This document shows, piece by piece, positions 33,239 through 35,099 of a DNA stretch of 39,086 nt. Both the position numbers and the translations under genes were made by a program. Origin of the DNA: a virus (lineage: Duplodnaviria; Heunggongvirae; Uroviricota; Caudoviricetes); IMG/VR virus record IMGVR_UViG_2541047917_000011. The stretch is one strand, 5' to 3'. Position 1 is the first letter of the stretch, and each line of letters begins with the position of its first letter. The notes under the pieces were generated by a model. The model had not been told where the DNA came from. It was given only the letters and a program-made list of their open reading frames with translations, and searched no databases.

Positions 33239-33393
33239 TATCTGCAATCAGGCTGGCGCGAGTTCTGTTTTTTTTCGGGCCGGTCTGATTTTCACATACT
33301 GTAAGGTTATTGCATATTCCTCCTAGTCTCTTCCCATTTTGACCCAGTTCTTCCCATAAATATCTCACTTATTCCCTGTCATTTATCTCAAGT

Positions 33394-33705
33394 CTAATCA
33401 CTCAGCACATACTCACGCAGTTCGCTGATGCTCCAGTTTTTAATCTGGTTGTAGGCCGTTTCGTTAACATCGTCCTGAATCAGCCGCGTCACGCAGTCAT
33501 CTTCATAGGCAATCACCGGATTATTGCGGATGTCCGCTACGGTCATTTCCGACAACACCTGCTTTGCCGCCACGCGCTCCTGTGAGCTTGCCGCTGCGAC
33601 GCCCGCCAGCACATCCCCCGAACGCAGTTCGTTGGCTTTAGCCAGCACCTCTTTTACATCCTTAAACTGATATACATTGCCGAACAATGTGGTCTTTAGT
33701 TTCAT
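33394..33705 (-). pseudogene. eutB: 5' fragment of ethanolamine ammonia-lyase large subunit gene eutB, truncated by the prophage insertion
   Basis: Starts MKLKTTLFGNVYQFKDVKEVL... (recalled EutB N-terminus); only ~103 codons before a stop at the prophage junction; GAGGGA RBS. Confidence 0.55.
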
Positions 33706-33893
33706 AAGTCGTTCCCTCAGGAAGAAGTGATGAGTGACATTTTTCACAGCATCCAAACAATTCTATTTCATCGTTAGCCCTTGTCCTGTAAGGCAATTGC
33801 CTTAACACGCCCGCTATTCATCCTGCCGAACGTAACCGAACGCGCCGGATACATGAGCGGGGTTATCGAGTCGTTAGATCGAGGTATCCGGTT

Positions 33894-35099
33894 TTGAGCA
33901 AGACACCACTGACAGCAAAGGCCATAGACGCCGCACAACCAAAGGACAAGCAATACAAACTCACCGATTCACTGACGCCCGGCCTGTTTTTGCTGGTGCA
34001 TCCCAACGGATCAAAGTATTGGCGATTCAGGTTCTGGATGGACAAAAAAGAGTATTTGCAGGCTATTGGAGTGTACCCGCTAATCAGCCTCAAGGAAGCC
34101 CGTAAACGCGCTACAGAGAGCCGATCTCTGATTGCTAATGGAATTAATCCAGTGGAAGAAGCACGCAAGGAAAAAGCCATTGATGCGCTCAACATGGCGG
34201 CAGGTTTTAAGACGGTAGCGGAGGACTGGCTGGCTACCAGGGTCAGCGGGTGGTCAGAGTCCTACACGAAACAGGTTAGATCGGCACTGGAAAAAGATGT
34301 TTACCCCGTGCTGGGGAAGCGGTCAATTGTCGATATAACGGCCCGTGACGTGCTGGCATTGCTTCAGAAGAAAGAGCGTACCGCACCGGAACAAGCCAGG
34401 AAGCTACGCCAGCGTATCGGGGAGATCTTCAAATTTGCCGTTATCACCGAACTGGTTAACCGAAATCCGGTTGCAGATCTGGACTCGGCCCTGAAAGCCC
34501 GCCGACCAGGTCACAATGCATGGCTGCAAATTAGTGAAATTCCGCCCTTCTACAAAGCCCTTGAGAGAGCCGGGAGCGTTCAGATTCAGACGGCAATACG
34601 TTTGCTTATATTAACGGCATTAAGGACCGCAGAACTGCGTTTAATGCGCTGGGAATGGGTAGATCTGGAGTCAGCAACAATCACCCTACCCGCTGAAGTC
34701 ATGAAGGCCCGCCGACCGCACGTAGTCCCGTTATCCCGGCAGGCGGTCGAGCTATTACAGGACCAGTTTACCCGCAGCGGATACAGTGCTTTCGTCTTTC
34801 CGGGTCGATTCATGGATAAGCCATTGTCAGCCAGTGCGATACTGAAGGCGCTTGAGAGGATCGGCTATAAAGCCCTTGTCACTGGTCACGGATGGCGCAC
34901 AACATTCAGCACCGCACTTAACGAGTCCGGCAGGTACTCACCAGACTGGATCGAGATACAACTGGCCCACGTTCCAAAGGGAATCAGGGGAGTTTACAAT
35001 CAGGCGGCCTACCTGAAGCAACGACGAGCAATGATGCAATCGTACGCGGACGCCATTGATTCAATACTGGCTGGTGACGGCAATCCGCTGGAACCGTGA
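33894..35099 (+). CDS. intZ: Tyrosine site-specific integrase, P4 family
   Basis: 401 aa; N-terminal DUF4102-like arm domain, C-terminal HxxR and catalytic Tyr; TTG start; symbol assigned from genomic context, not from a search. Confidence 0.85.
   Translation: MSKTPLTAKAIDAAQPKDKQYKLTDSLTPGLFLLVHPNGSKYWRFRFWMDKKEYLQAIGVYPLISLKEARKRATESRSLIANGINPVEEARKEKAIDALNMAAGFKTVAEDWLATRVSGWSESYTKQVRSALEKDVYPVLGKRSIVDITARDVLALLQKKERTAPEQARKLRQRIGEIFKFAVITELVNRNPVADLDSALKARRPGHNAWLQISEIPPFYKALERAGSVQIQTAIRLLILTALRTAELRLMRWEWVDLESATITLPAEVMKARRPHVVPLSRQAVELLQDQFTRSGYSAFVFPGRFMDKPLSASAILKALERIGYKALVTGHGWRTTFSTALNESGRYSPDWIEIQLAHVPKGIRGVYNQAAYLKQRRAMMQSYADAIDSILAGDGNPLEP

Follow-up and report, generated by a model that had tools for sequence, protein, structure and literature searches.

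Transposable phages of the BcepMu kind and the integrase island CPZ-55 of Escherichia coli K-12 are the described systems closest to the locus analysed here, which lies in a stretch of 39,086 nucleotides (the window) from the viral record IMGVR_UViG_2541047917_000011, where a prophage, the 5′ part of the ethanolamine ammonia-lyase gene eutB and an island with an integrase gene stand side by side. BcepMu (NC_005882) shares with the window prophage the gene order Mor, GemA, ..., ATPase, transposase, ..., repressor, followed by the divergent lysis, terminase, head and tail genes, and in both phages Mor stands last, at the genome end, and the early and late arms are divergent. Both BcepMu ends read TGAAG-N6-G(A/C)GATATTT ..., the same layout as that of the window phage ends with their two subterminal repeats. 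BcepMu carries an acyltransferase gene at its tail end, whereas the window phage has a Gin-type invertase and an invertible tail-fibre segment there, and the window phage further differs in its enterobacterial host and in the accessory locus between repressor and holin. Enterobacterial relatives of BcepMu are Escherichia phage PhiKM (PQ738613) and Klebsiella phage KP12.

Phage Mu has Gam, GemA, Mor, portal and F/G-type head genes, TG...CA ends, a temperate transposable lifestyle and insertional gene inactivation in common with the window phage, as well as a Gin-like invertase with an invertible tail-fibre segment. However, the window transposase is rve/Tn552-like, the arms of the window phage are divergent whereas those of Mu are co-directional, and its tail genes are P2-like. 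The target duplication of Mu is 5 bp, and that of the window phage is 6 bp. BcepMu-related prophages with rve transposases have been described to possess TG...CA termini in a paper on KS10 (PMC2628397). On the other side of eutB, CPZ-55 of K-12 occupies the same location, at the eutA stop codon and the eutB ribosome-binding site, in the same orientation divergent from eutB, and the gap between eutB and intZ is 178 bp in K-12 and 188 bp in the window; however, the K-12 cargo, yffL-yffS, is unrelated to that of the window island. According to one report, CPZ-55 at eutA|eutB keeps eutB from being induced and microcompartments from forming in K-12 BW25113 (PMC7617246), and for uropathogenic strains eutA|eutB has been described as a hot spot of prophage insertion (PMC6652756).

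Based on the analysis reported here, we propose, with a probability of roughly 0.95, that a transposable phage of the BcepMu type entered eutB by DDE transposition. The features at the junction are as follows.

1-33400, unstranded: BcepMu-like transposable prophage, visible for 33.4 kb of about 37.3 kb, assigned by identity to PhiKM and colinearity with BcepMu.
33239-33400, unstranded: Mor-side phage terminus, identical at five host flanks and laid out as the other end and both BcepMu ends.
33401-33406, unstranded: 6-bp target-site duplication, CTCAGC on the plus strand and GCTGAG in eutB orientation, repeated at 22207-22212 of the scaffold record L021.
33401-33705, minus strand: host-derived 5′ part of eutB, 101 codons plus 2 nt.
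33394-33705, minus strand: truncated eutB open reading frame (ORF), assigned from the ORF list, Pfam, BLASTP and comparison with uninserted alleles.
33706-33724, minus strand: what remains of the eutA-eutB junction, including the eutB ribosome-binding site GAGGGAACGACTT, equal to an island-free contig (L010) up to 33724.

The minus-strand ORF at 33394-33705 comprises 103 codons plus a stop. An earlier note on this DNA had taken its beginning for the N-terminus of EutB, and this holds: the window product agrees at every position with residues 1-103 of EutB as annotated in E. coli YJ6 (100% identity, BLASTP E=2e-72) and matches Pfam EutB (PF06751) at E=2.3e-35. The match covers profile positions 1-91 of 435 only, and the window ORF thus falls short of a full-length EutB domain; intact EutB proteins have 445-453 amino acids (445 in YJ6; the gene of K-12 has 1362 nt), and the remainder of eutB lies ~37 kb off, past the prophage, in the source scaffold. 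When 33100-34000 was compared by megablast with 5426 complete E. coli genomes, 5375 matched, only from 33397 rightwards, and a record spanning the junction was found in 0 of the 5426. The eutB identity, the intZ arrangement and the homology edge at 33397 therefore make the observation real, far beyond what chance would give.

The same note had placed the end of the ORF exactly where the prophage starts. Truncation at the phage junction stands, but the boundary is 33400|33401, 4 bp further right than 33396|33397. All uninserted eutB alleles examined read ...GCTGAG-CGAT-GAA, whereas the window reads ...GCTGAG-TGAT-TAG, so that ATCA at 33397-33400 consists of phage bases merely resembling eutB, and the phage terminus contributes the third base of codon 102 (Ser), codon 103 (Asp) and the stop codon TAG. 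The phage end at 33400 reads ...GTCTAATCA, with a 3′ end ...CA. In junctions extracted from several copies of the phage, this one terminus (...CTCAAGTCTAATCA / ...TCTAATCA / ...CATTTATCTCAAGTCTAATCA) adjoins five different host flanks; therefore, the phage ends at 33400 with the 3′-CA typical of Mu-like elements.

Read inward as the reverse complement, the Mor-side terminus starts 5′-TGATTAGACTT and carries two putative transposase-binding repeats, GAGATAAATG (33380-33389) and GTGAGATATTTATGG (33354-33368), and the Gin-side end, taken from complete copies, begins TGATGCGCCGCGCGATAAATG. The two phage ends thus have the form TGAT...ATCA and read inward TGAT-N7-G(A/C)GATAAATG, with one repeat at positions 12-21 and a second at about 35. 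Two records were set aside in defining the ends: the cysE-adjacent copy in strain N196 is a deleted remnant and was kept for the right-end flank only, and the PhiKM record, which did not serve to define the left end, is circularly permuted, its phage ends being separated by ~350 bp of host-like DNA. This DNA, at 20230-20576 of the PhiKM 'partial genome', is annotated as an ABC transporter permease fragment and lies between the true termini. A promoter and terminator scan of 33100-34000 gave consensus-level matches only, near the shuffle expectation.

The left prophage end lies outside the window, ~3.9 kb left of position 1, and was found in scaffold KE702063.1 of GCA_000460835.1, which was recovered by an exact look-up of the 103-residue product and again by the tape-measure protein ~25 kb further along. 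Window and scaffold were compared over two stretches, 1-18281 and 23394-39086, with 0 mismatches. Here the scaffold reads phage-end|GCTGAGCGATGAAACC..., with eutB resuming without a base lost: after the Gin-side terminus come GCTGAG, the duplicated hexamer, and CGATGAAACCAGCGTGGAC..., the native eutB continuation, and past the junction stands a 339-residue ORF matching Pfam EutB (PF06751). The rest of eutB, which had been expected beyond the other phage end, is accordingly present with a perfect target duplication; however, the duplication measures 6 bp (CTCAGC/GCTGAG) at both ends and not the 5 bp anticipated. With the gap estimate included, the prophage occupies 37,325 bp of the scaffold. 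The junction 31-mers are CTCAAGTCTAATCACTCAGCACATACTCACG and TTCATCGCTCAGCTGATGCGCCGCGCG, and a scan of IMG/VR viral contigs for the right junction and the predicted left junction gave 0 matches to either. The window's left edge coincides with the border of an 841-N scaffold gap (L021 18283-19123) inside the tail-fibre gene, and the gap adjoins the invertible segment with the Gin-type invertase; inversion heterogeneity probably broke the assembly at this gap.

Copies of the phage elsewhere behave in the same manner. Its last 997 bp are present in 641 of the 5426 complete E. coli genomes beside many different host genes, among them lplA, yehK, cysE and a TonB-dependent receptor gene, which therefore argues for transposition and not for site-specific integration. 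Duplications of 6 bp flank 4 of 4 complete copies: TCAATG (lplA), GCTGGT (by yehK), AATAGC (the TonB-dependent receptor gene) and GCTGAG (eutB).

We suggest that, after infection, the rve transposase and the AAA+ ATPase would have joined both 3′-CA phage ends to eutB with a 6-bp stagger at GCTGAG, a target spanning eutB codons 100-102, and that gap repair would then have duplicated the hexamer. The prophage of ~37.3 kb now parts eutB codons 1-101 from the remainder of the gene, and the terminus TGATTAG... completes codon 102 (Ser) with its first base and adds a codon for Asp and TAG, giving a predicted 103-residue N-terminal stub that would be without most of the EutB domain, because only profile positions 1-91 of 435 are covered. 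Observed directly were the two junctions with the 6-bp duplication, the identity of phage and ends, and insertions of the same phage at many other sites; the enzymology would be that of BcepMu, B3 and Mu, to judge from homology. Lysogeny is presumably maintained by the helix-turn-helix (HTH) repressor. The lyase gene eutB is split at both junctions, so that the disruption of the ethanolamine operon put forward in the earlier note is borne out at the gene level, and an ethanolamine utilization (Eut)-negative phenotype with loss of ethanolamine ammonia-lyase would be expected. The two findings that could have spoken otherwise did not appear, as the fragment does match eutB and the prophage lies within the gene and not in intergenic DNA beside an intact copy.

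Several points weigh against this reading or narrow it. That the transposase is active, that the phage can be induced and that the strain is Eut-negative are predictions from sequence, and the prophage in the scaffold is shown only in part, its tail-fibre region being broken by the 841-N gap. A literature search for the published target-duplication length of BcepMu returned nothing usable for comparison with 6 bp. In addition, eutB may already have been silent or poorly expressed in this strain, its loss adding little, because CPZ-55 at the same site is reported to block eutB induction in BW25113.

Since no more than ~500 bp separate the integrase gene from the phage end and integrases are usual at prophage borders, phage and island might be taken as one element that integrated site-specifically through the adjacent IntZ. 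However, 305 bp of genuine eutB plus the ribosome-binding site lie between them, and in strain JCC-EE 7 a 100% identical island adjoins an intact eutB without the phage; conversely, the identical phage, which has its own DDE transposase, occurs at many loci without intZ, each time with a 6-bp duplication and TG...CA ends. Phage integration mediated by IntZ was ruled out by the phage-free island, the intZ-free phage copies and both junctions, and a single composite element is barely conceivable. The identical island beside intact eutB and an island boundary placed at 33724|33725 by comparison with the island-free contig L010 show, therefore, that island and phage are independent: the island, 19 bp upstream of eutB, is an older element, inserted site-specifically by the P4-type IntZ where CPZ-55 is known to lie, at the stop codon of eutA. 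The join might also be an artefact of assembly or scaffolding, a chimera of the repeated phage and a eutB that is really intact, which would fit a draft scaffold whose prophage contains an N gap and a junction seen in no complete RefSeq E. coli genome. Yet both junctions are present with a perfect 6-bp duplication and no host base lost, as transposition predicts, and the assembly SRR32301346 from a separate run has the same right junction in a 7.8-kb perfect match, so that such an artefact is extremely unlikely.

The contig from that Logan assembly, L010, bears on another alternative, in which this position of eutB is a preferred target of the phage and was hit independently more than once. 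The junction indeed occurs in two contexts, with the intZ island in the window and in the sequence record L008 and with eutA abutting eutB in L010, and three of the four bases after the target in eutB (CGAT) equal those of the phage terminus TGAT. Nevertheless, L010 shares the private window single-nucleotide polymorphism 27046T, which three copies at other sites lack, and is otherwise 100% identical over 7.8 kb; a single insertion, after which the island was gained or lost, or a contig from a mixed sample, is therefore more likely. Moreover, the insertion is found in 0 of the 5426 complete genomes though 641 carry the phage, and no obvious sequence is common to the other insertion sites, which leaves a hot spot very unlikely. 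In L010 (1-3010), eutA is split into ORFs of 73 and 360 residues and directly abuts eutB, with no IntZ island.

With a BcepMu-type phage transposed into eutB, the case is an ordinary inactivation of a gene by a phage of a familiar type. Phage and island both belong to known kinds, the mechanism is likewise known, the sequence is in a public assembly, and the understanding of transposable phages and of the eut operon is unchallenged. The value is one of annotation: eutB in this strain is a pseudogene split by a prophage, and metabolic models and phenotype predictions should therefore not count ethanolamine ammonia-lyase as present. The analysis also provides base-exact ends and a 6-bp duplication for the BcepMu-like prophages of E. 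coli, which are undefined in automated annotation, and shows that what is called 'CPZ-55' in strains other than K-12 may share the integrase and the site and yet carry wholly different cargo.

With respect to its gene content, the prophage DNA is 96-99% identical to PhiKM, which is classified in Bcepmuvirus, and the window prophage has the rve transposase with an adjacent AAA+ transposition ATPase (ExeA/Eha-like), the TG...CA termini with subterminal repeats, the divergent early and late arms and the many-site insertion with a short duplication that mark this genus. The MuA-type transposase, 5-bp duplication and co-directional order of classical Mu (Muvirus) are absent, and the type is BcepMu-like (rve transposase, 6 bp, divergent arms), not classical Mu. 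The early arm (transposition) is on the plus strand and the late arm (tail, head, lysis) on the minus strand. The plus arm, ~25150-33238, encodes an HTH protein, a DUF3102 protein, the rve transposase, an AAA_22 ATPase, Gam, GemA and Mor, and the minus arm runs from 24921 to 1 with a repressor-like HTH protein, accessory genes, lysis genes, terminase, a Mu-type portal, Mu-type F/G proteins, head proteins and a P2-type contractile tail; the rest of the tail fibre, the invertible segment, the Gin-like invertase and the left terminus occupy the leftmost ~3.9 kb outside the window. The assigned genes are listed below.

24460-24921, minus strand: HTH repressor-like protein at the early/late divergence point (Pfam HTH_31/HTH_3; position of BcepMu gp17).
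26450-28219, plus strand: DDE (rve) transposase, 589 amino acids (Pfam rve; identity to BcepMu and B3).
28230-29396, plus strand: AAA+ transposition ATPase, an ExeA/TniB/MuB-like partner, 388 amino acids (AAA_22 E=3.8e-20).
29696-30226, plus strand: Gam host-nuclease inhibitor (Pfam Phage_Mu_Gam E=1e-40).
32428-32877, plus strand: GemA (Pfam GemA E=8e-41).
32849-33238, plus strand: Mor-family activator of middle/late transcription, the last gene before the phage end (Pfam Mor E=1.3e-43).

Over 98% of its length, the transposase is 68% identical to BcepMu gp09, which is annotated as 'Tn552/IS1604 rve transposase'; its identity to the transposases of Pseudomonas phage B3 and PhiKM is ~57% and 99%, respectively. 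At E<=1e-5 in the phage collection, matches to Escherichia records were limited to PhiKM and Phi06_2974 B, with no phage Mu record among them. The ATPase, with the same 388 residues, is annotated by RefSeq as 'ExeA family protein' in identical prophages and is syntenic with BcepMu gp08, 'DNA transposition protein'. BcepMu gp17, the counterpart of the HTH protein at 24460-24921, is a cro/cI-type regulator, and the window protein is probably the phage repressor. No Rfam match was obtained in the window at the gathering threshold.

Between repressor and holin, the accessory locus at 22291-24463 contains three ORFs (158, 196 and 328 residues), on which Pfam and PADLOC gave no significant match; PhiKM and KP12 have a Dam methylase at the equivalent place. 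This place may be a variable hot spot of moron or defence genes. For the phage accessory genes and the island genes together, PADLOC and Pfam returned no informative matches.

The island was described in the earlier note as CPZ-55-like, with a P4-family integrase 188 bp beyond the eutB start, and comprises the following features.

33725-39086, plus strand: integrase island at the CPZ-55 site, continuing at least 4.6 kb past the window in L008.
33894-35099, plus strand: intZ, a P4-family tyrosine integrase of 401 amino acids with a TTG start (Pfam; identity to K-12 IntZ; RefSeq intZ annotation).

The integrase call is sustained by the 401-residue ORF and its P4-type set of Pfam domains (Arm-DNA-bind_3, Phage_int_M and Phage_integrase), and the spacing of 188 bp from the eutB start codon recurs in the RefSeq annotation of YJ6. 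The likeness to CPZ-55 holds for the integrase, an IntZ orthologue 93% identical to that of K-12, and for the site, but not for the cargo: by blastn against K-12 CPZ-55 the integrase region aligns (~88% nucleotide identity) plus a few short patches only. An attachment (att) core of ~TTCCTGA overlapping the eutA stop codon is suggested by comparison with L010 and K-12. The island is also longer than CPZ-55, at least 9.8 kb, with eutA not reached within the extra 4.6 kb of L008. An intZ homologue is present in 482 of the 5426 complete genomes, and at least 80% of the island segment in 64, one of which is 100% identical. The continuation at 210-4063 of L008 holds a pyridoxal-dependent decarboxylase fragment, an amino-acid permease, an Asp/Glu racemase and an IS1 copy, a metabolic cargo quite unlike that of K-12 CPZ-55.

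Other lesions are found in and around eutB. In the European Nucleotide Archive metagenome contigs L009 (10310-10312), L011 and L012, independent nonsense alleles change codon 104 from GAA to TAA, giving the same 103-residue product, with the rest of eutB called as a separate 347-residue ORF; eutA is split as well in L011. These alleles suggest eut decay in some E. coli populations. A widespread eutB insertion, considered because many contigs carry the 103-residue product, was rejected, as most represent this unrelated E104* allele or contig ends. The signs of eut inactivation comprise the IntZ island at eutA|eutB, the phage in eutB, the split eutA ORFs and the E104* alleles, which sit one codon from the insertion point. 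That they reflect a repeated inactivation of eut in this lineage, possibly under selection, or that GCTGAG is a preferred target of BcepMu-type transposases hit more than once, is unlikely.

Two minor observations concern the EutB protein and the island. EutB is annotated with 445 residues in YJ6 (L001 4972-6309) and 453 in K-12 (L028 4319-5680), and the EutB of the window's strain, judged by the 339-residue 3′ ORF, would also have 445, so that the C-terminus seems to be 8 residues shorter in the lineage of YJ6 and the window's strain. In the island, about four direct repeats ACGTGTGACATTTGGGA(C/T)ACAGGT (periods 24 and 33 by Tandem Repeats Finder) at 36185-36290 lie directly downstream of the gene for a 257-residue protein with a C-terminal HTH_36 domain (35346-36119), and look like an iteron or operator array for that protein.

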